From an uncultured Candidatus Competibacteraceae bacterium (GTDB taxonomy: Bacteria; Bacteroidota; Bacteroidia; CAIKAF01), in NCBI GenBank assembly GCA_964578885.1, contig CAZOEO010000019.1, forward strand, positions 245 to 64,244: 64,000 nucleotides of DNA, read 5' to 3'. The first letter of the stretch is position 1, and each line of letters starts with the position of its first letter. The position numbers and the translations under genes were made by a program. Shown in pieces: positions 2,543 through 28,129 of this stretch. The notes below the pieces were generated by a model. The model was not told the DNA's origin, made no database searches, and saw only the letters and a list, made by a program, of their open reading frames with translations.

Positions 2543-3070
2543 TTATTTAATTTTAGTTTCAAGTTTATTTAATTCTAATCTATGGTTTTCAATCTGGGAA
2601 TCCAAATGAATGTACTTTCCCCAAATCCAGTTTTCTAATTGTGTGCGAATGAGACTAATGAAGTCTTGTAGATTGGAAATTGTGCCAAATGTGAGAAAGT
2701 TCAATACCAACCAGATTAAAATTCCTGCTTCTGAATAATTCAAAATATCTCCTAAGTTACTTATCGAGCCAAATTTGTAAAGAGTAAAAAGGATGCCTCC
2801 CCAAAGCAAAACAAACAAGATTCTAACTATAAAATATATTCGCTTGAATGTTTTGGTAAGCTTAATTTTAAGTTGTTCCTCCTTGGCCAAGAGTTCGCTT
2901 AATTGTTGGTGTTTTCGTTTTGCTTCTTCTTTGTCGTCTTTAAATTCATCAGGAGCAAGTTGAGTTCTGCCAACATCTAGTTTGCCTAATGAAATTACAA
3001 ACACAATTATCAGGATGGTAATCAAGATTACAATGAGGGTTTTTTCTGTTAGGCTGCTGTTATTATTCAT
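2543..3070 (-). CDS. Hypothetical membrane protein with a central coiled-coil (175 aa; hydrophobic N-terminal segment, a Lys/Glu-rich helix, two further hydrophobic segments).
   Basis: Hydropathy pattern in the translation; no family recognised. Confidence 0.35.
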   Translation of the reverse strand: MNNNSSLTEKTLIVILITILIIVFVISLGKLDVGRTQLAPDEFKDDKEEAKRKHQQLSELLAKEEQLKIKLTKTFKRIYFIVRILFVLLWGGILFTLYKFGSISNLGDILNYSEAGILIWLVLNFLTFGTISNLQDFISLIRTQLENWIWGKYIHLDSQIENHRLELNKLETKIK

Positions 3071-3827
3071 TTAAATTGATAAAAGTTTAGACTTTTCTTT
3101 CAAAAGAAAATCGAAGAGTACTTTGAATCCTTTAAAATCTTCGGGCTTGAATTTATTAAAATCATTTTGAATATGAATTTTAGGTGTTGGAAAAGCCGTT
3201 AAGTCTTTATGTGTTGGCTTTTGTGATTTTCTTGTTCATTCCGGCGATATTGCCCCCCCTCCGGTTTTTAGGATTGTTTATCAAAAAGCGATTATAAAAT
3301 TAGATTTATTTTCTCAAAGATTCGCCTTGTAAATCTACCCGATGAGCTTTCGCAGTTAAGCGGTTCATTATGGCATCACTTAGCGTTGGCTCGGCAATGA
3401 TTAAATACCACAAAGCCACGGGTAGTTGGGAGGCGATGAGGGTTGATTAGTACCCCAAGAATTGCTACTAATCCCACTTCGTCTTTAAAAGTGACCCTGA
3501 ATTTTCATCGCTCTTATTTATTCGTATAAAATGCAGTCATCGATTTTTACGAAATAATTATCCAGAACATGCAAAAGACTATTTCTTTTTCGTGCTTTTC
3601 GCGGGCTTTAGAGAAGAGGAATTACCTTGAGTATCCTTGTTGTCTCTTCGACGTTGGTCTAGCTTTCCAGTTGATTTAGCAATTGGTTTTGGTCCCCGTT
3701 TAATTCCCATGATTTCATAGTTTGATTGAACCTGAAAATTACCAATTTTTTCTTTTGGTTGTATTTTGTTATATGAATTTACAAAGCCTACATTTAAGTG
3801 TTGAATTGGTGTTAGGATGTCATTGTT

Positions 3828-4103
3828 TTGAAGCTACAAACACTACCGCCAGAAAGGGCGGAAGCGGAGCATGAAACTTACGCAACAGAGTTTATTCGGC
3901 GGTTATTACAGCACATCCTGCCCAAAGCATTTGTGCGTATCCAGCTCTACGGATTTTTGAGCAGCACGACTAAGAGCAAGCGCCTGCCTGAATTAAGGCG
4001 AAACTTGCAAATAAACAATCCCGCTCGTGCCGCTGCACAAACTTTACATCGCCACCAAATTCAACTACTGGCTAGCGAAGTGGAAAGCATCCCAAGGGAA
4101 TGA
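3828..4103 (+). pseudogene. IS91-family (Y2 rolling-circle) transposase, C-terminal fragment only.
   Basis: EFIRRLLQHILPKAFVRIQLYGFLSS matches the conserved C-terminal EFIRRFLLHVLPxGFHRIRHYGLF block of IS91/IS801 Y2 transposases (from memory). Only 91 aa are present. Confidence 0.55.
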
Positions 4104-4135
4104 AACAACTGCGGGTTTTATGGAGATTGGGTTGA
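4055..4135 (+). repeat. 81-bp direct repeat, copy 1 (overlaps the 3' end of the IS91 transposase fragment).
   Basis: 77/81 identity with 6404-6484 by eye alignment. Confidence 0.75.
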
Positions 4136-4202
4136 GGGAAGTAAAGTTGGGTACGGTTTTGGAGATTGAAGCTCCATCAGGGGTAAAGATCACGGTGTTT
4201 GC

Positions 4203-4439
4203 ATGAGTTTGTTTGGACTAGAGGAAGCGACCAAGGTTTTTCTTTATGCCCGCCCGGCTGATATGCGAAAGGGATTTGACGGGCTGTATGGCTTGGTACT
4301 TGAGGAAATGAGTTTAGACCCTCGTTTGGGTTATCTTTTTTGTTTTTATGAATTTGCAACGTACTCGCATCAAAGTGTTGCATTGGAATCAGGATGGCTT
4401 GGCCATTTTTCACAAGCGCTTATAACGTGGTACATTTAA
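4203..4439 (+). pseudogene. tnpB: IS66-family accessory protein TnpB (orf2) remnant; C-terminal half diverged or frameshifted.
   Basis: ARPADMRKGFDGLYGLV matches the IS66 TnpB hallmark (xxPxDMRKxFDGL). The length is short and the tail is non-canonical. Confidence 0.55.
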
Positions 4440-4621
4440 GCGTCCAATGGCAAGATTGGACGCGCCCAATAGCGAGCTTAGCAAAGAGGAATTATTCATG
4501 ATTTTGCGGGGAATTGATTTTGAAAGAACCAAGAAAAGAAAGCGCTTTTTATCCACATAAACTGTTGATTACTTTTTCGTAAAAAGGCAGTAAAATCAAC
4601 GTTTTCCCACTATATTTAGGT

Positions 4622-6214
4622 ATGGAAACCGCGATGGAAAACATGACAAAACAAGAGCTGATTCAAGCGCTTTTGTTGCTCAGAAAATCCAACCAAAAGC
4701 TTGAGGTTTCTATCCAGGCAAAAGACGAAGTTATTGCCAAGAAAGACGAAGTTATTGCCAAGAAAGATGAGTGCATTGCCAAGAAAGATGAGTGCATTGC
4801 CGAGAAGGAAGAAGATGTTGCTCGATTAAATTTGATTGTAGCCAATCTTCAGCGCATGCTTTTTGGCACTAAGAAAGAGCGTTTTCTTGCGCAAAACGAA
4901 AATCAGTTAACACTGGAATTTGAAGAGTTCGCCTCAGAAGATGCCAAGGCGGATACCACTCCAGTAAAAGAAAAAATCACCTACGAGCGCGAAAAGCCTT
5001 CAAAGCATGCGGGGCGCAATAAATTGCCTGAAAACCTGCCTGTAGAGGAAGAAATCATTGAGCCTGCGGATTTAAATGAGGGTATGGTAAAAATAGGTGA
5101 AGAAGTAACCGAGATATTGGAGTATGTACCTTCTCGGTTTTTCAAGCGCAGAATTATCCGGCCCAAATATCTCAATAAAGAAACACAGCAAATTGCAATA
5201 GCAGAGCTTCCCTCTAGGCCCATCGAAAAGTGTTTGGCCGGAAATTCTGTTTTAACCCACATTTTGGTGAGCAAATACGTGGATCATTTACCCCTATATC
5301 GCCAACAGCAAATTTTCAAGCGCGCAGATATTGAGATTGCGCCATCCACGATTGATTCTTGGGTGGCGCAGTCCGGCAGTCTTCTTGTTCCGCTTTACGA
5401 TAGAATGGTTGAATATGTTAGAAACCAAGGCTATTTGCAAGCCGATGAAACAACATTGCGGGTATTAGACAAGAATAAAAAGGGCGAAACGCACCTAGGT
5501 TATTTATGGGTGTATCATGCTCCTTTGTCTAAATTATGCGTGTTCGACTACCAAGAAGGCCGTGGAATAGATGCTCCGCGCCAAATGCTTACTAATTATC
5601 ACGGTGCGCTGCAAACCGATGGATACAAAGTGTATGATCACTACTGCCTCCAACCTACAATACACCATTTAGCTTGTTGGGCGCATGCTCGTCGATATTT
5701 TGAAAAGGCACTAATACAAGACAAACAACGTGCATCGCACGTATTGCAGGAAATCCAAAAGCTATACGCTATTGAGCGCAAAACGGCTGACCTTACACCC
5801 GAAGAACGACATGCCATAAGATTAGAAGAAGCTCTTCCTCTCATCAATGAGTTAGGTAAATGGATGCAACGCGAACGAAACATGGTTTTGCCCAAATCCC
5901 TTATCGGAAAAGCCATTGAATATTGCACTAAATTATGGCTGAACTTGTTGGCTTACCTCAATAACGGAAATTACCACATTGATAACAACGCCATAGAAAA
6001 CAAAATCCGCCCCGTAGCGCTGGGACGCAAAAATTATCTGTTTGCCGGATCACATAACGGTGCAAAAAGAACAGCGATGTTCTATACCTTCTTCGCAAAC
6101 TGCCAACTTAACGGCGTAAATCCCGACAAATGGCTCAGTAAAGTACTGGAAGTAATCGCTGATTATCCTTGCAACAAACTACAAAACTTGTTCCCTGGAA
6201 CATTGGAGGTGTAG
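4622..6214 (+). CDS. tnpC: IS66-family transposase TnpC (530 aa), apparently intact.
   Basis: N-terminal leucine-zipper/coiled-coil; LPLYRQ, DETTLRVL, GYLWVY and HLACWAHARRYFEKAL motifs typical of IS66 TnpC. Confidence 0.9.
   Translation: METAMENMTKQELIQALLLLRKSNQKLEVSIQAKDEVIAKKDEVIAKKDECIAKKDECIAEKEEDVARLNLIVANLQRMLFGTKKERFLAQNENQLTLEFEEFASEDAKADTTPVKEKITYEREKPSKHAGRNKLPENLPVEEEIIEPADLNEGMVKIGEEVTEILEYVPSRFFKRRIIRPKYLNKETQQIAIAELPSRPIEKCLAGNSVLTHILVSKYVDHLPLYRQQQIFKRADIEIAPSTIDSWVAQSGSLLVPLYDRMVEYVRNQGYLQADETTLRVLDKNKKGETHLGYLWVYHAPLSKLCVFDYQEGRGIDAPRQMLTNYHGALQTDGYKVYDHYCLQPTIHHLACWAHARRYFEKALIQDKQRASHVLQEIQKLYAIERKTADLTPEERHAIRLEEALPLINELGKWMQRERNMVLPKSLIGKAIEYCTKLWLNLLAYLNNGNYHIDNNAIENKIRPVALGRKNYLFAGSHNGAKRTAMFYTFFANCQLNGVNPDKWLSKVLEVIADYPCNKLQNLFPGTLEV
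4724..4807 (+). repeat. 4 x 21-bp in-frame tandem repeat (2x aaagacgaagttattgccaag, 2x aaagatgagtgcattgccaag) encoding KDEVIAK/KDECIAK heptads in the TnpC N-terminal zipper.
   Basis: Read directly in the sequence. Confidence 0.9.
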
Positions 6215-6250
6215 TTGCTCGGGGGGATACGCCGTATCCCCCCGAGCAAC
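6214..6250. repeat. 37-bp perfect palindrome (gttgctcggggggatacg c cgtatccccccgagcaac) starting on the last base of the tnpC stop codon.
   Basis: Every position i pairs with position 38-i, checked base by base. Confidence 0.85.
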
Positions 6251-6403
6251 CACGTATTGTTTCGCCCCTAAATCATGCTGATTTTTGTTGGCAAATACTA
6301 TGTTCGATGAGTTTACAGGAAAAGATGTTCTCCGAGGTTGAGAACTAGATGGCATCAGGTGCTGCAAAATTGACATTTTTGGTCGGCAAAGATTATAGTG
6401 TGG

Positions 6404-6484
6404 CCAAATTCAATTATTGGCTAGCGAAGTGGAAAGCATCCCAAGCGAATGAAACAACTGGGGGTTTTATGGAGATTGGGTTGA
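6404..6484 (+). repeat. 81-bp direct repeat, copy 2 (downstream of IS66 tnpC).
   Basis: 77/81 identity with 4055-4135. Confidence 0.75.
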
Positions 6485-6551
6485 TTCAATTCCCCGCATT
6501 TTCCCTTTTCAATCAAATTTCCTAACTTCCCCATTCGTTTAACCATCTGCC

Positions 6552-6827
6552 ATGCCACCATCCACCCGCCAATCTTTTGTCATTCCTTGGAAAGTCGGGG
6601 AGGGGAAGTGGATGTCATTTTCCGGAGCAAATAGGTTTAAAGGCATAAGTTATGTGAAAAGAGGCTACAAAACTTATGAACTCAGTAATCATTTGGGGAA
6701 TGTGCTTGCTACGGTTTCGGATAGGCGTGTTTCCGGCACCTGTACCGATTCCATTGTAGATTTCTATGATGCGGATATCTTAACCATAAGGTTACAGAGG
6801 TTACAGTGTTGTTATGAATACACTTAA
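6552..6827 (+). pseudogene. Internal rhs fragment. Residues FKGISYVKRGYKTYELSNHLGNVLATVSDRRV(S/C)GTCTDSIVDFYDADILTI are near-identical to nt 499-652 of the main rhs, without the downstream Rhs core end.
   Basis: ~155 bp nucleotide identity with 499-652 (3-4 mismatches); both flanks diverge. Confidence 0.6.
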
Positions 6828-7086
6828 TAATCCAAACTTATCAGAGCAAACAAAAGCAACTAAATTAGAAGCAGTAGGCGCTAAATTTAGAAGAGATGTT
6901 TTAATACCAGATCATGTTAATCAATTGAGCGGTTTAATTGAGCAATCTAATTTCATGTTAGCATTTGATAAGTCCTTGTCAGGTACTGCAAGGACATTAT
7001 TGCAACAATCTATTGGTGGCATGCAAAGGCAAATTGAAGCTTATAATGCAGAACAAACACAAATAACAAAAAAATATGGCAACTAA
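6814..7086 (+). CDS. Hypothetical protein (90 aa) downstream of the rhs fragment.
   Basis: ORF only. Confidence 0.25.
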   Translation: MNTLNNPNLSEQTKATKLEAVGAKFRRDVLIPDHVNQLSGLIEQSNFMLAFDKSLSGTARTLLQQSIGGMQRQIEAYNAEQTQITKKYGN

Positions 7087-7507
7087 AGCGGCAATATTAT
7101 TTCAATTATTTTTTCTTAGCTGTAATTTTCATCCTCACCCGATTTTGTTACAAATGGATTTTAAAAATCAAATAATAACTCTATCGGATACAAATTACTT
7201 TATTTATAAAGTTCAGATAGAAAATGATGCCGCAGATTCTCCTTTTTATATGGCTATATTAAACTCTGAACAACCTGAAGGCCGAATTAGTATTAATTTG
7301 AAGCACAGGAATATTTATAAATACGACATTAAGGGAGATTATAGAAATGCATGTGAACAAGAAATTATTAACTACAACCGCACTTATATAACTGTGTGGG
7401 CATATCCTAAAAAAAGCAATCTGTCCGAAAAGCATTTCTCATTTAACTATTCTTGTAATACTGATACGGTTATAGCCGTAGAATCCGAAAAACGTTCTTT
7501 ACCCTAA
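7076..7507 (+). CDS. Hypothetical protein (143 aa, hydrophobic N-terminus with a Cys); possible orphan immunity-like protein.
   Basis: ORF plus its position after an rhs remnant; no motif. Confidence 0.3.
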   Translation: MATKAAILFQLFFLSCNFHPHPILLQMDFKNQIITLSDTNYFIYKVQIENDAADSPFYMAILNSEQPEGRISINLKHRNIYKYDIKGDYRNACEQEIINYNRTYITVWAYPKKSNLSEKHFSFNYSCNTDTVIAVESEKRSLP

Positions 7508-7607
7508 AGAAAAAGTCCCGCAAGCCGAGGCTATTCTTTTGCTTCCTACTCTGCTTCGCAGAGCCCAAAAAAATGGGGAGGTTACAACCCCTGCTGAAAT
7601 GATTACT

Positions 7608-7793
7608 GTATCCCCCCGAGCAACTACACCTCCAATGTTCCAGGGAACAAGTTTTGTAGTTTGTTGCAAGGATAATCAGCGATTACTTCCAGTACTTTAC
7701 TGAGCCATTTGTCGGGATTTACGCCGTTAAGTTGGCAGTTTGCGAAGAAGGTATAGAACATCGCTGTTCTTTTTGCACCGTTATGTGTGGCAT
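7608..7793 (-). repeat. Inverted partial copy (~186 bp) of the IS66 tnpC 3' end, corresponding to plus-strand 6048-6232. It ends exactly at the palindrome half-site.
   Basis: The reverse complement of 6048-6232 matches 7608-7793; the match is lost beyond both ends. Confidence 0.8.
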
Positions 7794-8279
7794 CCCGTAA
7801 TCAAATAAAATTTTCACCCTAAAATAATTTGTATTGTGTTGCAAAAATACCCTCATTATGTTAGTCGTTTTTTTCCATATCACAAATGGTATAAAGACGG
7901 ATGGTTATCCGAAGATAGCGACAAAAATTTCAAAGCCGAAATAGACCGAATATTTTATGAAATCTCTAGTTACATATTCTAACTGTGCGCATAATGCAAT
8001 TGCATTTGCAAGTACATTTGCTTTTGGCCAACGCTAATGCCATCGCAGAAAAAAGCAAAAGAGCTTGCAAGCCAACGCACAGGACACCTCAGACTAATCA
8101 TAACAACCATACGGATGGAAAGAAGAGTTACCCAAAACAGCCTTTCTCCACAATGAGGTCTGACGTGTTTCAACCAAGTGCAGTACGTCTTTCAACATTT
8201 GTGCTTGGTTGACAGTTTTGTGCTCCAAAATCACCACCATTCCTGCATTTCATCAAATCCCCCCAAAAACCACTCATAT

Positions 8280-9473
8280 TTATTCAAAAGCCACCGGGTA
8301 CACCACCCTATACAATTTAGCTTGCCCCACCGGACCATTATATTCAAAATGAATCAAGCCCTCCAGCTTATTCTCGCTGTTCATCCGAAAATGCCACTTA
8401 TCTACATCATATTTATTGGTCAGATTCCATGCATCCCAACCCAGAAAAATCACCAAAGCCGGCAATTCGTAGGTTTTACCATTTAAATAATTGATGACTA
8501 CAATTTTTTGTACCGATGTGGTTCCGTTCCAGCTATAAGTACCCAGGCTCATGATGATCCATTTTCCGGAAACATTGGAATGAAGAATACTCCAGGACGC
8601 TTCCGGCGCATAATATTCAGAAAGCGTATTTCCTGCACCTACTCGATACAATTTATCGAAAGCCACCAGATAATCATTGTTGATGACATGCAAACGAGCA
8701 CCGCGCATCAAAATGATTTCATCGTAACCGCCCCTGTAAATGCGAGTAAATTGGTTGTCTTTAAACTCATAAAAATTAACCCCCGTGTTGTTGGTATTTT
8801 TATAGATAAATTCATCATTCTTTGATCGGAACACATCTTGTTGTACGGGACTCCATTCTTCGCCATTAGGGATACTTCCAATGATCAAATCCCAGACTTG
8901 CGTACCAGGGTTCCATTTATACAACATGGCGACGCCATCGTCCTGTCGTTTTCCAATCAAGTAAAAATCACTTTGGGTGGCTGCCAACTGAACAGACCAA
9001 AATTTTATCTGAAAAGTTTGTTCAGTATACAAGGAAAATGTCTCAGCATTCGGGTCAAAAAAGCGGGTTTTAATGACATCCACCTGCGAATTCGGACTCG
9101 TGTGTTCTACCTGACAAATGGCCTGATCTGAAGCCACAAAATGCATATAATTAGGAGAAGAAACATAATTAACCCATGTGTCATTTTCGAAACGGGCTAA
9201 ATGATACTGATGTTGGGCACTGGTAAGTACGTGGTAATAATGAAACTCCTTCCCACCTGCATAAAACACTTTCAAAATATCACTTCGGTGATTATCTGCC
9301 AGCGGCATAATGTGGTTATCAGATGGAATGATAAAACGTTCAGTTAATTCAATCACCTGAGGGTCAGGCTGGTTGTTGTTACCACCATTATTCCCCTCAT
9401 CTTTTGAACAAGAAACACCCAAAACCAACAAGAGGCCCACCAAAAAATACCTTAAAGAATTCACCGACTTCAT
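8280..9473 (-). CDS. Hypothetical lipoprotein (397 aa; signal peptide ending ...LGVSC; Asn/Gly-rich linker, then an aromatic-rich domain).
   Basis: Signal peptide with lipobox-like Cys; no family recognised. Confidence 0.5.
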   Translation of the reverse strand: MKSVNSLRYFLVGLLLVLGVSCSKDEGNNGGNNNQPDPQVIELTERFIIPSDNHIMPLADNHRSDILKVFYAGGKEFHYYHVLTSAQHQYHLARFENDTWVNYVSSPNYMHFVASDQAICQVEHTSPNSQVDVIKTRFFDPNAETFSLYTEQTFQIKFWSVQLAATQSDFYLIGKRQDDGVAMLYKWNPGTQVWDLIIGSIPNGEEWSPVQQDVFRSKNDEFIYKNTNNTGVNFYEFKDNQFTRIYRGGYDEIILMRGARLHVINNDYLVAFDKLYRVGAGNTLSEYYAPEASWSILHSNVSGKWIIMSLGTYSWNGTTSVQKIVVINYLNGKTYELPALVIFLGWDAWNLTNKYDVDKWHFRMNSENKLEGLIHFEYNGPVGQAKLYRVVYPVAFE

Positions 9474-9924
9474 TAAATGATGATATAAAATAAACGTTTA
9501 ACCCAAATAAAACCAACTACTATGGATTTAAAAAAATCATAGTAAACGTTTTAATCACTTACAAACAAATATAAGTGACAAAAAGCTCCACTCCAAATAG
9601 GAAAATGGTAACCTCTTCATTTTTAGAATTGGTTGTAAATACACAAATGAAAAAAATCGTCTCGCTGTCAGGAAAAGGAAAACCCTATGGCTCGTGAAAA
9701 ATATTTTTCGGACATACCTTTTCTGGATTGAAAAAGCTTACCAATCCAATCAGATCCCAGGAGAAATGAAGAACACCTCCATTTGAAAAACACATGAAGG
9801 AAAAGTAAAAAGGTAGGAGGAACATTTAAACCGCTAGAGGGCAGACAGGGTCATCACCCATTCAACAGGGCTAAAGAAAGAGGCCAAAACTCCCAAAAGG
9901 AAACAAGCACGGCTATAAAAAAGA

Positions 9925-9962
9925 AAACCCCAAGTGAATACTTGGGGTTAAAAAAACAATCG
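9925..9962 (-). terminator. Rho-independent terminator after rplQ (ccccaagtattcacttgggg + T-run on the minus strand).
   Basis: Hairpin plus U-run immediately 3' of the rplQ stop. Confidence 0.65.
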
Positions 9963-9967
9963 AGATA

Positions 9968-10447
9968 TTATTCAGCAGAGGCCTCAGTGGTATCAGCCGC
10001 AGCAGATTCCACTTTTGCTTTAGCACCACCAGCACGACGGGTACGTTTCTTTGTACCTTCTGACTTTTTGCCGTCTTTGGTATAAGTGGCATTGAAGTCT
10101 ACCAGTTCAATCATGGCCATTTCAGCATTGTCACCAGCGCGAGGTCCCATTTTAATAATACGGGTATAACCGCCAGGACGTGTAGCTACAGCGGCAGCCA
10201 CATCACGGAACAATTCAGTAACTGCTTCCTTGTTTTGCAGGTAGCTGAACACCAAACGACGAGAGTGCGTGGTGTTGTCCTTTGATTTGGTAATCATTGG
10301 CTCCACATACTTACGTAGTTCGCGTGCTTTCGCCACCGTAGTGGTGATACGCTTGTGGGTAATCAAAGAAATCGCCAGGTTGGCTAAAAGGGCCTGCCGA
10401 TGTGCGGCTTTACGACCCAAATGATTCACTTTTCTTCCGTGTCTCAT
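9968..10447 (-). CDS. rplQ: 50S ribosomal protein L17, with a Lys/Ala/Glu-rich C-terminal extension.
   Basis: [25 protein letters not shown]... signature. Confidence 0.95.
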
Positions 10448-10479
10448 GACTTAGTTTTTATGAAACCACCAATGGTGCT

Positions 10480-11472
10480 TCAGTCTTTATCTAATTTATA
10501 TTTGGCCACATTCATTCCGAAGTGAAGGCCTTTATTGCGAACCAATTCTTCTAGTTCCACCAAAGACTTCTTACCGAAGTTACGAAATTTCAATAAGTCG
10601 TTTTTGTTGAAAGCCACCAGGTCTCCGATGGTTTCCACATCAGCCGCTTTAAGGCAGTTGAGGGCACGAACGGATAGATCTAAATCAACCAGTTTGGTTT
10701 TTAACAACTGACGCATGTGAAGGCTCTCCTCGTCAAACTCTTCAGTTTGGGCTTTTTCTTCCGTATCGAGCGTAATTTTCTCATCAGAGAAAAGTGCAAA
10801 GTGCTGGATTAGAATTTTAGCCGCTTCCTTCAGCGCTTCTTTAGGATGAATGGAACCATCAGATTTTACTTCAACCAACAACTTTTCATAGTCAGTTTTT
10901 TGTTCTACCCGATAGTTTTCAATTGCGTACTTCACGTTAACAATGGGAGTGAAGATAGAGTCAATGGCTATAAAATGAATGTCGCCATGATCCCTTTTAT
11001 TTTCCTCCGCCGGACGATAACCTCTGCCTTTCTCGATTACAATCTCCATGTGAAGTTTCACAGAAGGATCGAGATTACAAATCACCATATCAGGATTCAG
11101 GATTTGAAAACCTGAGGTGAATTTAGAGATATCACCTGCACGAAACTGTTCTGCACCGGTAAACGAAATGACCACATGCTCAGAATCCAGGGTATCAATT
11201 TGTCTTTTAAACCTAACTTTTTTCAGGTTTAAAATGATGTCAGACATGTCTTCCACAACACCTTGCAGGGTAGAGAATTCATGAGAAACACCATCTATCT
11301 TCACCGCTGTAATGGCGAATCCTTCTAAAGAGGAAAGTAGAATTCTTCTAAGAGAATTGCCAATGGTAATCCCGTAACCCGGTTCGAGGGGGCGGAACTC
11401 AAATTTGCCCAGGAACTCATCTGATTCGAGGAGTATAACCTTGTCGGGCCGTTGAAAATCGAGAATGGCCAT
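10480..11472 (-). CDS. rpoA: DNA-directed RNA polymerase subunit alpha.
   Basis: 330 aa, canonical rpoA N- and C-terminal domains, sited between rpsD and rplQ. Confidence 0.95.
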
Positions 11473-11494
11473 ATGCGGTGTAATCGGTTAGAAA

Positions 11495-12100
11495 TTATTT
11501 GGAGTAAAGTTCCACGATAAGTTGTTCGCGGATATTTTCAGGAATTTGCTCGCGACGTGGTGCCATAATAAAGGTACCTTCCATGGCGGCTTGATCCCAG
11601 CTCAACCAATCAAAACGGTGAGGAGACAATCCCAATGAATTAGTAATAACAGAAAGGGACTTTGAACGCTCACGTACACCCACTTTATCACCTGGTTTCA
11701 AGGAAAAAGAAGGAATACCAACCAATTCACCATTAACGGTAATATGTTTGTGGGTAACGAGCTGACGAGCGGCGTCTCTGGTGGGAGCCACACCCATACG
11801 ATATACTACGTTATCCAAACGGCTTTCACAAAGGATTAAAAGGTTTTCACCAGTAACCCCTTTCAGGGTGGAAGCTTTCTCAAACAATTTTCTGAATTGA
11901 CGCTCCAGAATACCATAAGTATACTTAGCTTTTTGCTTCTCCATCAACTGGATAGCATATTCAGACTGCTTCTTTCTGCGCTTAGAAGGGCCATGCATTC
12001 CGGGAGGATATGCTTTGCGCTGCAGCGACTTGGAAGGACCGAAAATGGGTTCCCGAAAACGACGGGCTATCTTGGCTTTAGGGCCTCTATAACGTGCCAT
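11495..12100 (-). CDS. rpsD: 30S ribosomal protein S4.
   Basis: [15 protein letters not shown]... Confidence 0.95.
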
Positions 12101-12142
12101 GACAATTTACTTAATTAGATGAATAAATGTGAAGGTAAAGGA

Positions 12143-12526
12143 TTAAACGCGACGACGTTTCGGCGGACGGCAGCCATTGTGAGGCATAGGCGTAATGTCT
12201 ACGATTTCGGTCACCTCAATCCCAGCATTATAGATATACCGAATAGCGGACTCCCTTCCTGCTCCAGGGCCTTTCACATACACTTTAACACGACGTAATC
12301 CCAAATCATACGCTTCTTTAGCACACTCAGTGGAGGCCATTTGAGCGGCGTATGGGGTGTTTTTCTTGGATCCTTTAAAACCCATTTTACCCGCACTGGA
12401 CCAAGTGATGACTTGCCCTTGCGCATTGGTAAGAGAAATGATGATGTTGTTGAAAGTAGCATTGATATGCGCTTCTCCAACCGCATCCACTTTCACATTT
12501 TTCTTGCTGACTTTTTGCTTTGCCAT
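12143..12526 (-). CDS. rpsK: 30S ribosomal protein S11. Start set at MAKQK; the track ORF begins 2 codons earlier at a TTG.
   Basis: ...[20 protein letters not shown]...[12 protein letters not shown]. Confidence 0.93.
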
Positions 12527-12535
12527 GATCAAAGA

Positions 12536-12913
12536 TTACTTGGTAGCTTTCTTCTTGTTTGCTACGGTTTTTTTCTTGCCTTTCCGTGTGCGGCAATTGT
12601 TTTTGGTTTTCTGTCCACGTACAGGCAATCCCACACGATGACGAATACCACGGTAACAACCAATATCCATCAGACGCTTGATGTTGAGCTGCACCTCAGA
12701 ACGAAGCGCACCTTCTACCTTAACTTCTGCATTAATGATATTACGAATCCGAGCCAATTGGTCATCGGTCCATTCGCTTACTTTTGTATTGAAATCAATT
12801 TCAGCTTTCGTTAAAATGCGCTGTGCCATTGGACGGCCAATGCCGAAAATGTAAGTGAGTCCTACCTCACCTCGCTTGTTCCTTGGAAGATCTATACCTG
12901 CGATCCTTGCCAT
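12536..12913 (-). CDS. rpsM: 30S ribosomal protein S13.
   Basis: [14 protein letters not shown]... Confidence 0.95.
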
Positions 12914-12945
12914 ACTGTGATGTTTCTGGGATTGTTGTATTAAAA

Positions 12946-13062
12946 TTAACCCTGACGTTGTTTAAAACGGGGATTCTTTTTGTTGATGACGTAGAGCTTT
13001 CCATTCCGACGCACAATTTTGCACTCGGCGCTACGCTTTTTAATCGATGCTTTTACTTTCAT
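12946..13062 (-). CDS. rpmJ: 50S ribosomal protein L36 (38 aa; below the ORF-track size cutoff).
   Basis: Hand translation of the minus strand: [38 protein letters not shown]. Confidence 0.9.
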
Positions 13063-13067
13063 GGCGC

Positions 13068-13286
13068 TTATTTGTAACGGTATACAATCCGACCCTTTGT
13101 AAGGTCGTAAGGTGACATTTCTACACGAACTTTATCCCCTGGTAAAATCTTAATGTAATGCATTCGCATTTTACCGGAAATATGGGAGACAATAATATGA
13201 CCATTCTCTAATTCCACACGAAACATGGCATTAGATAAAGCCTCTATAATTGTTCCATCTTGTTCTATTGAAGGCTGTTTAGCCAT
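13068..13286 (-). CDS. infA: Translation initiation factor IF-1.
   Basis: 72 aa S1-like OB fold, ...[35 protein letters not shown]. Confidence 0.95.
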
Positions 13287-13289
13287 TCT

Positions 13290-14096
13290 TTATATATAAG
13301 TTAAGTTCGTATTCTTTTGTATCGCTTCTTCAATGGCAGCATAAGATGAAAGTAATTCAAACTTTCCGTCTCTCACTACCACATTGTGTTCAAAATGGGC
13401 GCTGGGTTGTTTGTCTCTGGTCACAATGGTCCATTGATCACTTAACACGCGCACGTGACGTTTCCCGAGATTAATCATCGGTTCAACCGCCAACACCATT
13501 CCTGATTTCAACAAAACACCACGGCCCCTTGAACCAAAATTTGGTACCTCAGGAGCTTCATGCAAATTGGCGCCTAAACCATGACCGACCAATTCGCGCA
13601 CTACACTCATTCCATTGGATTCTGCATGTTTCTGAACAGCGAAACCAATATCACCGGTATAATTACCAGCCTGAGCCTGAGCTACACCCAAGTAAACACA
13701 TTCCTTTGTCACAGACAAAAGCTTAGCCCATTGGGGAGAAATTTCACCTATAGCAAAAGTATATGCGAAATCTCCGTGGTAACCTTTGCGTTGAATGCCA
13801 ATATCCACGGTAACAATGTCACCGGATTTCAGAGGCGTTTTTCCTGGAAAACCATGCACTACCTGTTCGTTTACACTATAACAAATAGAGAAAGGAAAAC
13901 CATGAAAACCTTTGAAGGAAGCTTTGGCCTGATGATCTTGAATGAAAGTGTCTACCCACGCATCCACCTCCAAACCGGTCACACCGGGCTTAAGCCTACT
14001 GGCTACAAGCGCAAGGGCTTGTTCAACAAGTAAAGAACTCTGCCTACAAAGAGCAACCTCTTCTTCGGACTTTATAATAGGCACTCCACTGGCCAT
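13290..14096 (-). CDS. map: Methionine aminopeptidase, type I.
   Basis: 268 aa, pita-bread metal ligand pattern, in the conserved position after secY. Confidence 0.9.
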   Translation of the reverse strand: MASGVPIIKSEEEVALCRQSSLLVEQALALVASRLKPGVTGLEVDAWVDTFIQDHQAKASFKGFHGFPFSICYSVNEQVVHGFPGKTPLKSGDIVTVDIGIQRKGYHGDFAYTFAIGEISPQWAKLLSVTKECVYLGVAQAQAGNYTGDIGFAVQKHAESNGMSVVRELVGHGLGANLHEAPEVPNFGSRGRGVLLKSGMVLAVEPMINLGKRHVRVLSDQWTIVTRDKQPSAHFEHNVVVRDGKFELLSSYAAIEEAIQKNTNLTYI

Positions 14097-14101
14097 AGAC
14101 C

Positions 14102-15430
14102 TTACATGGAGGGATAATTAGCCGGCATTCTTCCCTGCAGTTTTCCGGATTTCATCAATCCATCAAACTGACGCATTTTGAGGTGAGAATCGATTTGAGC
14201 CAAAGTGTCTAACACTACACCTACCATGATCAACAGAGAAGTACCTCCGTAAAACTGAGCAAAAGCAGGGTTCACATTGGCGAGAATGGCAAAGGCAGGT
14301 AAAATAGCTACAACTGCAAGGAAAATAGATCCAGGAAGAGTAACACGAGAAATAACCGCATCGATGTATTCAGCGGTCTTTTTTCCGGGCTTTACACCAG
14401 GAATGAAAGAACCTTCACGTTTCAACAAATCTGCCATTTGCTGAGGATTCACAACAATAGCGGTGTAGAAATAAGTGAAGACAATAATCAGCATGGCAAA
14501 AGTGAAGTTGTAGGCAAAAGAAGTGTAATCACTAAAGTTGCGCACAAACCAATTGGGTTCATCAGAAACGAAACCCGCCAACGTAATAGGAATAATCATA
14601 ATTGCCTGAGCGAAAATGATAGGCATTACACCGGATGAATTCACTTTTAATGGAAGGTAGCTTCTGGCACCCGTTGTAAAACGGTTTCCAACCATGCGTC
14701 TGGCAGCGTGAATAGGTATTTTACGCACACCCTGAACAAGCATAATGCTTAGGATGATTACCAGTAAAAGAATCACCATTTCCAAAAGGAACATAATCAT
14801 ACCTCCACCACCTGGTTCAACTTTACTTCTGAACTCTGTCAAGAGACCTGAAGGCAAAGAAGCAATAATACCAATCATGATAATCAAAGAAGTACCATTC
14901 CCAATACCTCGATCGGTAATTTTCTCACCTAACCACATCACGAAAAGTGTACCAGCAATGATGATGGTTACCGCGAGAATCCACCAGGAAGTGGTATCGG
15001 GGTAAACACCGGCTGGTATGTACTGGGTAAGGTAACCAGGCGCCTGAAAAGCAGTAATCAAAACGGTGAGACCACGGGTGATCTGCGTGAGTTGATTCCT
15101 GCCACTTTCATCTTTCTGAAGTTTTTGAAAATAGGGAACTGCAACGCCCAAAAGCTGAATGATAATAGATGCCGATATATAAGGCATAATACCAAGAGCG
15201 AAAATGGAGGCGTTAGAAAACGCACCACCAGTAAGCAGGTTAATGAGGTCAATCAAATTGGCGTCATCACGCGCTTCCAACTTGGAGGCTAAAAGCTCCG
15301 TATCGATACCTGGCAGGGTAATATAGGAACCCAGGCGATACACTGCCACCAAAATCATGGTGAAAGTGATACGATCACGGAGTTCCTGTATACTCCAGAT
15401 TTCTTTAAGACGTTGAACTAAGTTCTTCAT
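14102..15430 (-). CDS. secY: Preprotein translocase subunit SecY.
   Basis: 442 aa, 10-TM profile, in the conserved position. Confidence 0.95.
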   Translation of the reverse strand: MKNLVQRLKEIWSIQELRDRITFTMILVAVYRLGSYITLPGIDTELLASKLEARDDANLIDLINLLTGGAFSNASIFALGIMPYISASIIIQLLGVAVPYFQKLQKDESGRNQLTQITRGLTVLITAFQAPGYLTQYIPAGVYPDTTSWWILAVTIIIAGTLFVMWLGEKITDRGIGNGTSLIIMIGIIASLPSGLLTEFRSKVEPGGGGMIMFLLEMVILLLVIILSIMLVQGVRKIPIHAARRMVGNRFTTGARSYLPLKVNSSGVMPIIFAQAIMIIPITLAGFVSDEPNWFVRNFSDYTSFAYNFTFAMLIIVFTYFYTAIVVNPQQMADLLKREGSFIPGVKPGKKTAEYIDAVISRVTLPGSIFLAVVAILPAFAILANVNPAFAQFYGGTSLLIMVGVVLDTLAQIDSHLKMRQFDGLMKSGKLQGRMPANYPSM

Positions 15431-15444
15431 GGAAAAAGGTGAGA

Positions 15445-15891
15445 TCAGAGCGTTTGAGCAACACCACCTGCTTGCTCAATAGCAACACGTGCAGATGATG
15501 AAAAAGCATGAACGGTTACGTTGAGTTTGGCTTTTAATTCACCACTACCCAAAACCTTGACCAAATCGTTTTTAGAAACCAAACCGTGTGTGCGGAGGGT
15601 CTCCAAGCTGATTTCAGACAAGCCATGATTTTCAGACAAACGTTGAAGAACGTCTAAATTGAGTGGCTTATAAGAAACACGGTTGAAGTTGGTGAAACCG
15701 AATTTAGGTAAACGACGCTGAATTGGCATCTGACCACCTTCGAAACCAATCTTCTTGGAATAACCTGAACGAGACTTGGCACCTTTATGGCCACGTCCGG
15801 ATGTACCACCTTTGGTAGAACCTTCTCCACGTCCAACGCGACGTCCGGTATGTGTTGCTCCTGTTGCAGGAGATAACTGATTCAATTTCAT
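15445..15891 (-). CDS. rplO: 50S ribosomal protein L15. Start set at MKLNQL; the track ORF extends 11 codons further.
   Basis: MKLNQLSPATGATHTGRRVGRGEGS... Confidence 0.9.
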   Translation of the reverse strand: MKLNQLSPATGATHTGRRVGRGEGSTKGGTSGRGHKGAKSRSGYSKKIGFEGGQMPIQRRLPKFGFTNFNRVSYKPLNLDVLQRLSENHGLSEISLETLRTHGLVSKNDLVKVLGSGELKAKLNVTVHAFSSSARVAIEQAGGVAQTL

Positions 15892-15901
15892 AATGCAAAA
15901 A

Positions 15902-16081
15902 TCAAATGTGTTCAACGGTAACAAGGTGAGAAACTTTGCTAACCATACCCATGATTTGAGGGGTAGCTTCGTGTTCTACAACTTGGTTCATTTTCCGAAT
16001 ACCGAGGGCAATAAGTGTAGCCTTTTGACGCTCGGGGCGGTCGATACCGCTCTTTACTTGTTTAATACGAATTTTGGCCAT
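15902..16081 (-). CDS. rpmD: 50S ribosomal protein L30 (59 aa; not in the ORF track).
   Basis: Hand translation: MAKIRIKQVKSGIDRPERQKATLIALGIRKMNQVVEHEATPQIMGMVSKVSHLVTVEHI. Confidence 0.9.
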   Translation of the reverse strand: MAKIRIKQVKSGIDRPERQKATLIALGIRKMNQVVEHEATPQIMGMVSKVSHLVTVEHI

Positions 16082-16091
16082 GATACCCAGA

Positions 16092-16610
16092 TTATCCGTT
16101 AAATACTTTTTCCAATTTCACGCCACGCTCTTGAGCTACTGTGTATGCATCACGAAGTTCAGCAAGCGCTTCAAAGGTAGCTTTCACTACATTGTGCGGG
16201 TTGGAAGAACCTTTAGATTTGCATAACACATCTTTTACACCAACCGATTCAAGCACAGCACGCATAGCACCACCAGCGATAACACCGGTACCGGAAGCAG
16301 CTGGCTTCATGAATACACGTGATGAACAGTATTTAGCAGTAATTTCGTGAGGAATAGATCCATTGCGGATAGGAACACGAATTAGGTTCTTTTTGGCATC
16401 GTCGATACCTTTCTGAATAGCTTCAGTAACCTCATTGGCTTTTCCCAATCCATAACCGACTACCCCATTCTCATTTCCAACTACCACAATGGCGGCAAAG
16501 GAGAAGTGGCGACCACCCTTGGTCACTTTAGTTACGCGGTTGATTGCCACCAACCGGTCTTTCAATTCAATTTCGCTGGATTTAACCCGCTTTACGTTTG
16601 TCTGTGCCAT
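16092..16610 (-). CDS. rpsE: 30S ribosomal protein S5.
   Basis: ...[36 protein letters not shown]... Confidence 0.95.
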
Positions 16611-16617
16611 AGTGATA

Positions 16618-16971
16618 TCAGAAATTCAATCCACCTTCACGGGCGCCATCAGCCAAAGCCTTAACCCGTCCATGATACAAATATCCACCGCGATCGAAGG
16701 TTACCGCTTGGATGCCTAATTGTTGAGCCCGGTTAGCGAGCATTTTGCCTACCTCAAAAGAGCGGGCAGTTTTAGTACCTTCACCTGAAAAAGATTTTTC
16801 AGCGGAAGATGCATGTGCTAAGGTTTTACCAGACAAATCGTCGATAAGCTGAGCATAAATATCGCTATTGCTGCGGAAAACAGACAAACGGGGACGGGCT
16901 GCAGTGCCCTTCACACCTTTGCGAATACGAAAACGGATACGTTGCCTTCTGGCGGATTTATTGAATGCCAT
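16618..16971 (-). CDS. rplR: 50S ribosomal protein L18.
   Basis: 117 aa, conserved position and motifs. Confidence 0.93.
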
Positions 16972-16990
16972 TTCTGTCGGGATTCTTCAA

Positions 16991-17545
16991 TTATTTACCT
17001 GCTGATTTACCAGCTTTTCTTCTTAATACTTCGTTCTTGAATCGGATACCTTTTCCTTTGTATGGTTCAGGCTTACGTAAAGAACGGATTTTAGCGGCCA
17101 CCTGACCCAGCAACTGAAGGTCGCTAGAGTTCATGACAATACGTGGGTTCTTACCTTTTTCAGTAATAGTTTCCACAAGGATTTCCTTTGGTAACTCAAT
17201 CACGTAGTTGTGAGAATAACCAAGGGTAAGATCCAGGATTTGCCCTTTGGCTTCAGCACGATAACCTACACCAACCAGCTCTTGCTCTACAGTGAAGCCG
17301 GTGGATACACCTTTCACCATGTTATTAACCAGAGAACGGTATAGACCATGCATTGAACGGTGACGTTTCTGATCTGTAGCACGTGAAACGGTGAGCACTG
17401 ATCCTTCCACTTGGAAAGAAATAGCGGGGTCAACCGTTTGGTGTAGTTCTCCCTTGGGGCCTTTTACAGTAACCACATTGGCAGGAGAGACTGAGAACTG
17501 CACGTTGGCAGGAAGTTGAATAATAGCTTTTCCTATGCGTGACAT
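16991..17545 (-). CDS. rplF: 50S ribosomal protein L6.
   Basis: MSRIGKAIIQLPANV... Confidence 0.95.
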   Translation of the reverse strand: MSRIGKAIIQLPANVQFSVSPANVVTVKGPKGELHQTVDPAISFQVEGSVLTVSRATDQKRHRSMHGLYRSLVNNMVKGVSTGFTVEQELVGVGYRAEAKGQILDLTLGYSHNYVIELPKEILVETITEKGKNPRIVMNSSDLQLLGQVAAKIRSLRKPEPYKGKGIRFKNEVLRRKAGKSAGK

Positions 17546-17556
17546 ACTTTCTCAGA

Positions 17557-17949
17557 TTAATAGATGGAACAAAGTACTTCGCCACCCACGTTAAGGGAGC
17601 GAGCTTGTTTATCGGTCATCACACCACGTGAAGTGGAGATAATGGCAATACCCAAACCATTTAACACACGGGGCATTTCAGTAGCACCCTTGTAGCTGCG
17701 TAAACCAGGGCGTGAGATACGCTTTAAGTTTTTGATGGCAGGCTGACGGGTAGCCGGATGATATTTAAGGGCAATTTTAATTGTACCTTGAACGGTATTG
17801 TCCTCAAATTTATAGTTAAGAATATAACCTTGATCCATGAGGATTTTAGTCATTTCTTTTTTGATATTCGATGCGGGAATCTCTACCACACGGTGACGGG
17901 CCTTAATGGCATTCCGCAAACGTGTCAGATAATCTGCTATTGGATCCAT
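17557..17949 (-). CDS. rpsH: 30S ribosomal protein S8.
   Basis: [14 protein letters not shown]... Confidence 0.95.
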
Positions 17950-17970
17950 GTCTAATAATGCTTAACTAAT

Positions 17971-18240
17971 TTACCAGGAGGCTTTGGTTACACCAGGAAT
18001 CTTGCCTTCATTGGCCATTTTACGGAATAATACACGAGAGATTCCAAACTGTCTCATGTATCCTCTAGGTCTACCTGTTAGTTGGCAACGATTGTGCAGG
18101 CGCACAGGCGATGAATTTTTGGGTAAACGGGCTAAGGCTTGATAATCACCTTCCTCTTTCAAAGCGGCACGCTTAGCTGCATATTTGGCGACAAGACGCT
18201 GACGTTTGCGTTCTTTGGCCTTCATTGATTCTTTTGCCAT
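17971..18240 (-). CDS. rpsN: 30S ribosomal protein S14 (long, 89-aa form).
   Basis: ...[39 protein letters not shown]. Confidence 0.95.
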
Positions 18241-18245
18241 GACCC

Positions 18246-18809
18246 TTATTCCTGGTTTTTATTCACATCATTGAACGGCATACCGAAACCTCTCAGTAGT
18301 GCGTAAGCTTCGGCGTTGGTTGGAGCAGATGTCACAAAAGTGATGTCCATACCATTGATTTTCAAAACTTTATCGATGTCGATTTCAGCGAAAATCAATT
18401 GTTCGGGGATACCGATATTATAGTTACCTCTGCCGTCGAATCCTTTGGCGTTTACACCTTTAAAATCACGGATCCGGGGAAGTGATATAGAGATAAAACG
18501 ATCCAAAAACTCATACATGTTGTTCCCGCGAAGGGTTACCATGGCCCCAATGGGCATACCTTTTCTGAGTTTAAAATTCGAAATGTCCTTTTTAGACTTG
18601 GTTGAAACTGCTTTCTGACCAGAGATCAGAGACATTTCAGCCACCGCCATTTCAATGATGCGTTTGTCTGAAACGGCAGAACCGAGTCCTTGATTAAGGA
18701 CAATCTTTTTCAGGCGTGGAACCTGCATGGGAGATTTATACCCAAACTCCTTCTGAAGGGCGGGTACAATTTCATCCCTGTACTTTTGTATAAGTCTTGG
18801 TGCGTACAT
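18246..18809 (-). CDS. rplE: 50S ribosomal protein L5.
   Basis: 187 aa, conserved position and motifs. Confidence 0.95.
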
Positions 18810-19135
18810 TACTTAATAACTTCTCCTGTTTTCTTTGCAAAGCGAACCAGTTTACCATCCACTGATTTGCGACCAACACGTGTAGGTTGGTCTTTCACCA
18901 ACAACATGATGTTGGAAATATGGATAGGTGCCTCTTTCTCCACGATTTTTCCTTCTGGAGAGGCAGGGGTTGGTTTGGTATGGCGTTTCACCATATTAAC
19001 ACCTTCCACCGTTACGCGCATGGTTTCGCGGTTAATTGCTTTCACAAGACCTTTTGAGCCTTTATGAACGCCGGCAATCACCATTACCTGATCACCACTT
19101 TTAATCTTAAGTTTAATGCCCATGATATGGTTCAA
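18809..19135 (-). CDS. rplX: 50S ribosomal protein L24.
   Basis: [20 protein letters not shown] (KOW motif). Confidence 0.93.
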
Positions 19136-19504
19136 TTAAAGCACTTCGGGTGCCAGTGATACGATTTTGGTAAATTGCTTTTCACGCAGTTCACGTGCCA
19201 CCGGACCAAAAATCCTGGTTCCACGCATTTCGCCCTGGTTATTCAACAGAACAACTGCGTTATCGTCAAAGCGGATGTAAGAACCATCCAAACGACGAAT
19301 TTCTTTACGGGTTCTTACCACAACAGCTTTTGTAACAGCACCCTTTTTCACGTTTCCTGAAGGGAGGGCATCTTTTACTGAAACTACAATGGTGTCTCCG
19401 ATGGAAGCATACCTTTTCTTGGTACCGCCCAAAACGCGGATACACAATACCTCTTTGGCACCTGAATTATCCGCTACACGTAATCTTGATTCCTGCTGTA
19501 CCAT
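19136..19504 (-). CDS. rplN: 50S ribosomal protein L14.
   Basis: [27 protein letters not shown]. Confidence 0.95.
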
Positions 19505-19786: not shown

Positions 19787-19858
19787 CAATGAAGGATACC
19801 CCTGAAAACGGGCTTGCAAAGGTGCACGTAATTTTTGAAATATCCAACATCAAGTTGT
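19787..19858 (-). promoter_or_regulatory. Conserved ~72-bp promoter-like element, copy A, upstream of rpsQ. On the minus strand it reads AT-rich tract, inverted repeat TTAACAAcTTGatGTTGG, TTTG -33-like box, conserved spacer GCAAGCCCGTTTTcAGGGG, TA-rich -7-like box.
   Basis: Three-way alignment with 24824-24882 and 28048-28129. Confidence 0.6.
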
Positions 19859-19896
19859 TAATTTTTTTATGATTATTTGAATTATCACCTGCTATA

Positions 19897-24791: not shown

Positions 24792-24823
24792 TTTGTTTTC
24801 TTCAGTTATATAATACCCCTAAA

Positions 24824-24882
24824 AACGGGCTTGCAAAAGTGCAAGTTTATTTTTAAAAAACCAACAGTAAGGTGTTAATTTT
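24824..24882 (-). promoter_or_regulatory. Conserved promoter-like element, copy B, upstream of rpsJ (the S10 operon promoter).
   Basis: Alignment with copies A and C; sits between the fusA terminator and the rpsJ start. Confidence 0.6.
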
Positions 24883-24924
24883 GAAAAGAATATTTTCAGC
24901 CTTATTTACCAACCCTGTTGAAAC

Positions 24925-28012: not shown

Positions 28013-28047
28013 TCTCTAAATTCGTTATCCGAGTAATTGCTTTATAA

Positions 28048-28129
28048 TACCCCCAAAAACGGGCTTGCAAAGGTGCTGGTTTTTTCTTTAATATCCAACA
28101 ACCCTTTGTTAATTTTTTTAAGGAAGAAA
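28048..28129 (-). promoter_or_regulatory. Conserved promoter-like element, copy C, upstream of rpsL (the str operon promoter).
   Basis: Alignment with copies A and B. Confidence 0.6.

Follow-up and report, generated by a model that had tools for sequence, protein, structure and literature searches.

A probable decayed orphan Rhs tip/immunity module between IS66 remnants in an uncultured Bacteroidota lineage

The window analysed here, a stretch of 64,000 nucleotides from a probably metagenome-derived contig, carries at positions 6485-7607 what is, with a probability of about 0.88, a decayed orphan Rhs tip/immunity module (rhs-CT/rhsI). The unit formed by the main rhs gene, its tip 1 and imm1 lies 4.3 kb upstream of the module, with both on the + strand. 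A degraded orphan toxin/immunity cassette was one of the readings offered by the original prediction, and it is supported by the comparisons below, in which the 90-aa ORF at 6814-7086 (ORF90) is the tail of a toxin, here called toxin 2, and the 143-aa ORF at 7076-7507 (ORF143) is its conserved partner gene. The placement of both ORFs behind the rhs fragment was also correctly described, and an IS66-family element with its TnpC at 4622-6214 lies just upstream. The features of this part of the window are as follows.

5-1738, + strand: 3' part of the main rhs gene, with Rhs repeats, core end domain and toxin tip 1
499-654, + strand: repeat copy 1, within the main rhs (aa 166-217), delimited by base count
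1745-2146, + strand: imm1, presumed tip 1 immunity gene, 133 aa, directly 3' of the rhs stop
3867-3977, + strand: IS91-type transposase (Y2_Tnp), a fragment from the C-terminus, matching PF04986 with E=2.6e-7 over profile positions 146-182 of 183
4038-6230, + strand: IS66-A, without its left ~155 nt (alignment to the left end of IS66-B); its right terminal repeat ends at 6230
6234-6484, + strand: IS66-B, the left-end 251 nt only, with GTATCCCCCCGAGCAAC at 6234 and cut at 6484 against the leader
6485-6634, + strand: orphan leader, non-rhs, holding the ATG of the called ORF 6552-6827 and shared with contigs L010 and L017
6635-6790, + strand: repeat copy 2, the orphan's rhs core fragment, delimited by base count
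6791-6805, + strand: filler of 15 nt, GTTACAGAGGTTACA, where 692 bp are deleted (comparison with L010; unitig L001)
6814-7086, + strand: ORF90, the last 90 codons of toxin 2 (cluster membership, alignment)
7076-7507, + strand: ORF143, intact presumed immunity gene for toxin 2, 143 aa, directly 3' of the toxin ORF
7608-7787, - strand: IS66-C, the last 180 nt of an inverted IS66 copy, truncated at 7787 and 100% identical to 6051-6230

The main rhs ORF has no stop codon ahead of its ATG at position 5, and the gene therefore probably extends past the start of the window. TIGR03696 (Rhs_assc_core) matches aa 219-303 of this ORF with E=1.8e-6 and 28.3 bits, which does not reach the curated cutoff of 32.5; the usual Rhs end motifs, YDPRSGRRWNVDP…SPYGAFWGNPLVWSDPSG (YDPRSGRRWNVDP…NPLVWSDPSG), are visible by eye in the translation. 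The gene directly behind it, imm1, has no family match in Pfam or NCBIfam and accompanies tip 1 in contigs L015-L024; its function is presumed to be immunity to tip 1.

An internal duplication of rhs with diverged flanks had been noted from the letters of the window, and a base-by-base count upholds it, together with its coordinates, identity and peptide. Of the 156 nt in 499-654 and 6635-6790, 152 agree (97.4%); the mismatches fall at 597, 598, 628 and 637 of the main copy, and beyond either end the identity collapses. Repeat detection on the window returned a slightly longer pair, 490-654 and 6626-6790, at 96%. The two copies share an exact stretch of 98 nt and both encode FKGISYVKRGYKTYELSNHLGNVLATVSDRRV(C/S)GTCTDSIVDFYDADILTI, and the repeat ends one codon ahead of the TIGR03696 domain in the main ORF.

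The intact form of the orphan is seen in L010 (JGI 3300077578, 2,514 bp), which, like the other comparison sequences, is a short metagenome contig. Window 6485-6790 corresponds to L010 561-866 at 96.7% and window 6806-7593 to L010 1559-2346 at 99%; the 692 bp between them (L010 867-1558) have no counterpart in the window, where the 15-nt filler, present only once in the window, stands instead. L010 encodes a 403-aa ORF followed by ORF143, and the order within the 403-aa ORF is MPPST…GANR-FKGISYVKRGYKTYELSNHLGNVLATVSDRRVSGTCTDSIVDFYDADILTI-SDYYPFG…YDPRLGRYKSIDP…IMAIDLEGL-toxin, so that leader, rhs fragment, core end, toxin and immunity gene are all in place. The comparison with related sequences that had been proposed as a check yielded an intact orphan tip at the matching boundary of leader and rhs fragment. 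High identity with the main rhs continues for 19 nt more in L010, up to main position 673, and drops to ~62% beyond, which puts the native homology tract at ~175 nt.

The lost 692 bp carried the Rhs core end, the DLEGL demarcation/cleavage motif and the HExxH part of toxin 2. The demarcation motif is gone from the window and is kept in the intact relatives (YDPRLGRYKSIDP…NTPIMAIDLEGL), by which the window would hold the remnant of a member of the orphan rhs-CT/rhsI class. The reading frame is shifted, the net loss being 677 nt, and the stub ORF 6552-6827 consequently ends in RLQRLQCCYEYT*. The tip and immunity region has a GC content of 28-34%, compared with ~44% for the rhs core and IS66; low GC is typical of Rhs tips.

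Toxin 2 is recognised from relatives of ORF90, which shares 98-99% identity with the last 90 residues of the 265-aa and 403-aa Rhs tips on related contigs. ORF90 begins at an internal methionine of the toxin (…GGVVMNTLNN…), out of frame with the upstream rhs fragment, and is called as an ORF only because this methionine comes after a stop codon. Its 90%-identity cluster consists mainly of 265-aa proteins, with 246-aa and 220-aa members. The 265-aa tips start with MTIQYPFYTPYQYAGNTPIMAIDLEGL (MTIQYPFYTPYQYAGNTPIMAIDLEGLQPE…), which is the end of the Rhs core (in the intact tips, YDPRLGRYKSIDP…TPYQYAGNTPIMAIDLEGL), and run on for ~240 residues beyond it, including IAHEQVHESH. In the JGI protein P0032 (403 aa), the window's leader and rhs fragment are joined to the toxin 2 tip. 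The original prediction had called the two small ORFs unrecognisable, and this is accurate for Pfam, NCBIfam and HMMER; it ceases to apply when the members of the cluster and the contigs that carry them are looked at. That ORF90 and ORF143 form a small gene pair of their own, or a toxin-antitoxin system, was considered and rejected, the two being 99% identical to the 3' part of the tip cassette.

A search with the 265-aa protein recovered seven relatives only among 5.8 billion protein clusters, with sizes of 265-403 aa, and the alignment shows both HExxH and the Rhs core-end motif conserved in all seven. 'RHS repeat-associated protein' is the source name of P0032 and of every relative that carries one (three), and a distant homologue, P0036, is the last in an array of three orphan-type tips which all start MDMPGR…. 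A profile of the tip N-termini matches solved structures of Rhs, TccC and YenC proteins at their C-terminal core end, best 9on3 (E=1.8e-8) and more weakly 8qja, Tse5, 7q97, TccC2 and YenC2. The AlphaFold model of the 403-aa member is for the most part confident over the toxin, with a pLDDT of 74-96 from residue ~171 and one dip to 63, and it shows the stretch equivalent to ORF90 as a long hairpin of two helices, 324-364 and 370-401 (pLDDT 86-96). The intact toxin 2 has no Pfam match, and Foldseek against the PDB gave no significant fold match. Toxin 2 is, from its HExxH motif only, a putative metallopeptidase toxin; the motif is missing from the remnant in the window, where only the last 90 of ~240 toxin residues are left.

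ORF143 overlaps the toxin stop codon by 11 nt and directly follows the toxin ORF in every contig recovered (L002-L014, L025); from this arrangement it is presumed to be the cognate immunity protein of toxin 2. Its N-terminus, MATKAAILFQLFFLSC (…LFFLSC), as read from the sequence, fits a lipoprotein signal with Cys16. Such a signal on the immunity protein suggests that toxin 2 would act in the periplasm. A single-sequence structure model of ORF143 reached a pLDDT of 52, too poor for use. Between the window and L025 the gene differs by four synonymous and five nonsynonymous changes, a rough dN/dS of 0.3 from too few changes to show purifying selection. Upstream, the + strand of 6200-7120 holds no TAnnTTTG (Bacteroidota -7) motif, and sigma-70-type promoter matches were not above the shuffled expectation.

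There was no Pfam or NCBIfam match for ORF90, ORF143 or the rhs stub, the 91-aa stub ORF was not on record in an exact look-up, and the word-indexed homologue search returned nothing for ORF90 and only itself for ORF143. A full HMMER search with ORF143 against 1.84 billion representatives found the protein itself and one 77-aa fragment, so that its homologues are confined to its own cluster. Neither a GTDB genome scan with the 403-aa tip nor two scans of JGI metagenomes, which used the tip protein and a 40-mer taken out of the repeat, gave a match, and Rfam found no family in window 1-32000. In a GTDB scan with RpoA the best match was 77% identical, leaving no close reference genome for synteny.

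Among the related contigs and the window, at least five contexts hold the tip 2/imm2 cassette (window 6806-7586) at ≥98% identity.

L010: preceded by the leader and the rhs fragment
L002-L007 and L011: fused to the 3' end of a 74-aa gene beside a 904-aa T9SS (CHU_C) protein, at a different locus
L012: joined through a microhomology to a copy of window 3238-3464 in inverted orientation
L013, L014 and L025: behind a main-type core start, with the switch to the tip 2 type near the YGFNG motif
Window: the deletion form

The stretch shared near YGFNG is too short for the joint in L013, L014 and L025 to have been made as an assembler chimera. Another contig, L017, holds an IS66 fragment, the leader, the repeat with main-type SNPs, and tip 1-imm1 together. 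Unequal exchange between the repeat copies would be expected to leave this junction, as could chimeric assembly of short reads over the 98 identical nucleotides. In L016 an orphan-type CC patch lies within the main copy. Together these mosaic contigs suggest that tips of this kind were exchanged in the past. L025 has a toxin disrupted by a 1-nt deletion (frameshift) after the HExxH motif and an intact ORF143, which makes two independent lesions of toxin 2, the deletion in the window and the frameshift in L025, with the immunity ORF kept both times.

The most likely course of events begins with an ancestral form like that of L010, which would have consisted of a non-rhs leader, an rhs core tract of ~175 nt sharing ~97% identity with the main gene, a core end that has diverged (YDPRLGRYKSIDP…TPYQYAGNTPIMAIDLEGL), a ~240-aa HExxH toxin and an overlapping 143-aa lipoprotein-like immunity gene. 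With the loss of 692 bp and gain of 15 nt of filler, the core end would then have gone, together with the motif for autoproteolytic cleavage and the toxin's catalytic part, and the frame would have shifted, leaving a dead rhs stub (ORF 6552-6827), the toxin tail ORF90 and an intact immunity ORF. IS66 copies would have inserted on either side of the cassette and been truncated later. Toxin production from the cassette should no longer be possible. At most, it may provide orphan immunity against neighbours that still deploy toxin 2, and judged from the sequence this is the only plausible function left to it. Intact copies of toxin 2 do exist in related metagenome contigs.

A second suggestion of the original prediction was that the shared rhs tract serves as a substrate for tip switching and for deletion or inversion between the copies. 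If the cassette were live, exchange at the 156-bp copies would give the main Rhs a new toxin. The copies are direct repeats and 97% identical, the mosaics L013, L014, L017 and L025 suggest such exchanges among relatives, and exchange between main and orphan genes has a precedent in Salmonella (PMC3967940). The catalytic HExxH region is, however, absent from the window, and the predicted product of an exchange in this genome is main Rhs residue 217 fused to RLQRLQCCYEYT*. This fusion at the 156-bp repeat ends in …DADILTIRLQRLQCCYEYT* (…ILTIRLQRLQCCYEYT*), without core end, cleavage site or toxin, and imm1 would be removed along with the interval. Recombination at the repeat would now only truncate the main Rhs, and a functioning switch at this locus is very unlikely; the suggestion fits the intact ancestral form only.

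As for the rearrangements themselves, exchange between direct repeats gives deletion or duplication and never inversion, and inversion between the rhs copies was discarded on this ground. The part of the claim that concerned deletion holds; inverted repeats do exist at the locus, in the shape of two IS66 ends (6051-6230 and 7608-7787) that are identical over all their 180 nt. A RecA-type deletion or duplication of the 6.1-kb interval may still occur at the 156-bp direct repeat, and the 180-nt IS66 inverted repeat could invert the cassette, and neither event would be predicted to restore or switch a functional tip.

Misassembly of the deletion junction, or of the juxtaposition of the repeats, has to be weighed in what is probably a metagenome-derived contig (64,757 bp) with a locus this rich in repeats, among them the 98-nt exact stretch and the perfect 180-nt inverted repeat. 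The Logan unitig L001 (SRR12712864, 935 bp) is 100% identical to window 6703-7637 and covers the deletion junction, the filler, ORF90, ORF143, the IS66 junction at 7607/7608 and 30 nt of IS66-C. An exact match of this kind means that the deletion junction exists in reads, though L001 possibly comes from the same reads as the window's own assembly. The linkage of leader and repeat is moreover found independently in L010 and L017, and an artefact is very unlikely.

In its organisation, the decayed orphan cassette belongs to a kind of locus which is already well known. Orphan rhs-CT/rhsI modules have been described as 'silent cassettes' in Enterobacteriaceae (PMC3150448), and the orphans of Dickeya dadantii rhsC, Yersinia pseudotuberculosis and Salmonella Typhimurium STM0292 (PMC3150448, PMC3967940) likewise contain a 5'-truncated core piece of high identity to the upstream main gene. 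Common to both are a tip, of which the window has a remnant, followed by a small ORF presumed in the window to give immunity, the orientation of the main gene, a low-GC tip, debris of mobile elements, and a shared core that is a recombination substrate between main gene and orphan. In contrast to those orphans, the window's cassette is further decayed, with the core end and most of the toxin deleted, and its host is an uncultured Bacteroidota lineage. The shared tract is 156 nt (~175 nt in the intact form) compared with the 522 bp at 95% identity through which main and orphan genes recombine in Salmonella (PMC3967940), and the demarcation motif of the window's relatives is IMAIDLEGL where Enterobacteriaceae orphans have PxxxxDPxGL. 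Retention of immunity after loss of the effector, the state in which ORF143 would be, is known from the T6SS immunity arrays of Vibrio cholerae (PMC5361080) and from orphan Rhs immunity in Serratia (PMC10539506). Unlike the ordered arrays of V. cholerae, the window has a single remnant, whose expression and protective role are putative.

The toxin/immunity pair, unlike the kind of locus, is new and uncharacterised, and is very narrowly distributed. It has so far been found in short tip ORFs (≤403 aa) only. A fuller account can be put forward tentatively, and is less likely than not: toxin 2 and ORF143 would be an undescribed Rhs effector/immunity pair from a narrow uncultured Bacteroidota lineage, with a presumably periplasm-acting HExxH metallopeptidase bearing a C-terminal helical hairpin, a lipoprotein as immunity protein, and a toxin twice independently inactivated with the immunity ORF kept. 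If this is true, the locus would be a natural case of selection for immunity-only 'cheater' genotypes in a community where the toxin circulates. Being uncharacterised, the pair may be a small target for those who work on polymorphic toxins. For the annotation, one of two hypothetical ORFs becomes the remnant of a toxin pseudogene and the other a candidate gene for orphan immunity, with little import beyond this. The uncultured Bacteroidota lineage appears to show orphan biology of the Enterobacteriaceae type, with displacement, mosaic recombination, IS-driven erosion and retained immunity.

All three IS66 copies around the cassette are truncated and none has both ends. IS66-A, abutted on its truncated left side by the IS91-type fragment, has an intact tnpC (4622-6214; DDE_Tnp_IS66, PF03050, E=3.4e-94) and a frameshifted tnpB (4203-4439), in which TnpB_IS66 (PF05717, E=4.7e-9) matches over profile positions 2-40 of 101 only. 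IS66-B begins three nucleotides past the right end of IS66-A, and its positions 6387-6484 share 88% identity with 4038-4135. Three IS66 ends carry the terminal sequence GTATCCCCCCGAGCAAC, among them 6214-6230 on the minus strand. The copies resemble the IS66 family in a TnpC with DDE_Tnp_IS66, LZ, zinc-finger and C-terminal domains, in TnpB (IS66 Orf2) and in terminal inverted repeats, and differ from full elements in that one lacks the left end and has the frameshifted tnpB, one is a 251-nt left end and one a 180-nt right end.

The junction of IS66 with the leader is also present in L017. What precedes the leader in L010 on the left is unrelated sequence other than IS66, and its leader meets the rhs fragment at the same point as in the window, from which it follows that the 5' truncation of the orphan is older than the IS66 insertion. 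A very unlikely explanation, a second complete rhs recently truncated by IS66 and followed by small ORFs unrelated to a tip/immunity pair, draws on the IS66 fragments directly on either side (6234-6484 and 7608-7787). It fails because the 5' end was truncated before the IS arrived, because what was lost on the 3' side is a filler-bearing internal deletion away from any IS end, and because the small ORFs are a toxin tail and its partner gene. This arrangement, a complete rhs with a recent IS cut and no tip or immunity gene, had been named in advance as the case against an orphan cassette, and it was not seen among the related contigs. Further to the right, strains 99.7% identical over a ribosomal operon and a 397-aa gene split from the window at 8239 and carry other genes there, so that the whole left 8.2 kb of the window is strain-variable.

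The cassette formed by toxin 2 (tip 2) and its presumed immunity gene (imm2), which stands decayed in the window, was found in a further genomic context, and a distant relative of the toxin lies in an array of tips:
L002, 9753-10798: tip 2/imm2 cassette, further genomic context (ENA ERZ27298528 k141_143847)
L112, 2070-7585: array of three orphan-type Rhs tips (NCBI GCA_964269415.1)

In contig L002 the 3' end of a gene for a 74-aa signal-peptide protein (precomputed Pfam PTL_trimer) carries the cassette as a fusion, and a type IX-secreted protein of 904 aa (Calx-beta/PKD/CHU_C) is encoded upstream. The cassette has therefore changed its genomic location. Each tip of the L112 array begins MDMPGR… where the core-end domain starts, and the last one is a distant homologue of toxin 2 (32% identical). 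The 2 kb upstream of this array contain no main rhs.

In the window, the orphan cassette lies between the arms of a perfect inverted repeat of 180 nt (6051-6230 and 7608-7787), in which each arm is the right end of a separate IS66 copy, and homologous recombination between these arms could invert 6231-7607. A near-palindrome at 6211-6253 takes one half from each of two incomplete IS66 copies, IS66-A and IS66-B, whose ends abut there. The tnpB gene of IS66-A (4203-4620) has a frameshift at a T-run at approximately 4335-4350, with the remainder of TnpB in a different frame. Either tnpB is a genuine pseudogene here, or the shift is a sequencing error in the homopolymer. Joined directly onto the truncated left side of IS66-A is a transposase remnant, and the deletion junction carries a short filler:
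3828-4103: C-terminal piece of an IS91-type transposase (Y2_Tnp, Pfam E=2.6e-7)
6791-6805: 15-nt filler GTTACAGAGGTTACA

The filler GTTACAGAGGTTACA is built from two units of GTTACA, and GAGGTTACA from within it is found again at 7579-7587, just 3' of the presumed immunity gene; templated insertion is a possible origin of the filler.

To the right, approximately 450 nt of unassigned sequence (7788-8239) separate the truncated IS66-C from the start of synteny with 99.7%-identical strains at 8239, and in place of this sequence those strains carry TPR, Methyltransf_21 and IS genes. Two further elements were recorded in the window:
19796-19878, 24813-24895 and 28047-28129: three copies of an intergenic element of ~83 nt
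2543-3070, minus strand: predicted membrane protein of 175 aa that includes a coiled-coil segment

The copies of the ~83-nt element share 75-100% identity with the reference copy and had no match in Rfam; they could represent a common promoter or leader. In the same region are a 709-aa ORF, the size of EF-G, and several shorter ORFs. Just to its left is the ribosomal-protein operon, whose position (8239-19473) comes from synteny with contig L106. The predicted membrane protein is encoded between imm1, the presumed immunity gene of the main rhs, and IS debris, and is kept beside imm1 in several contigs (L018, L020 and L021).
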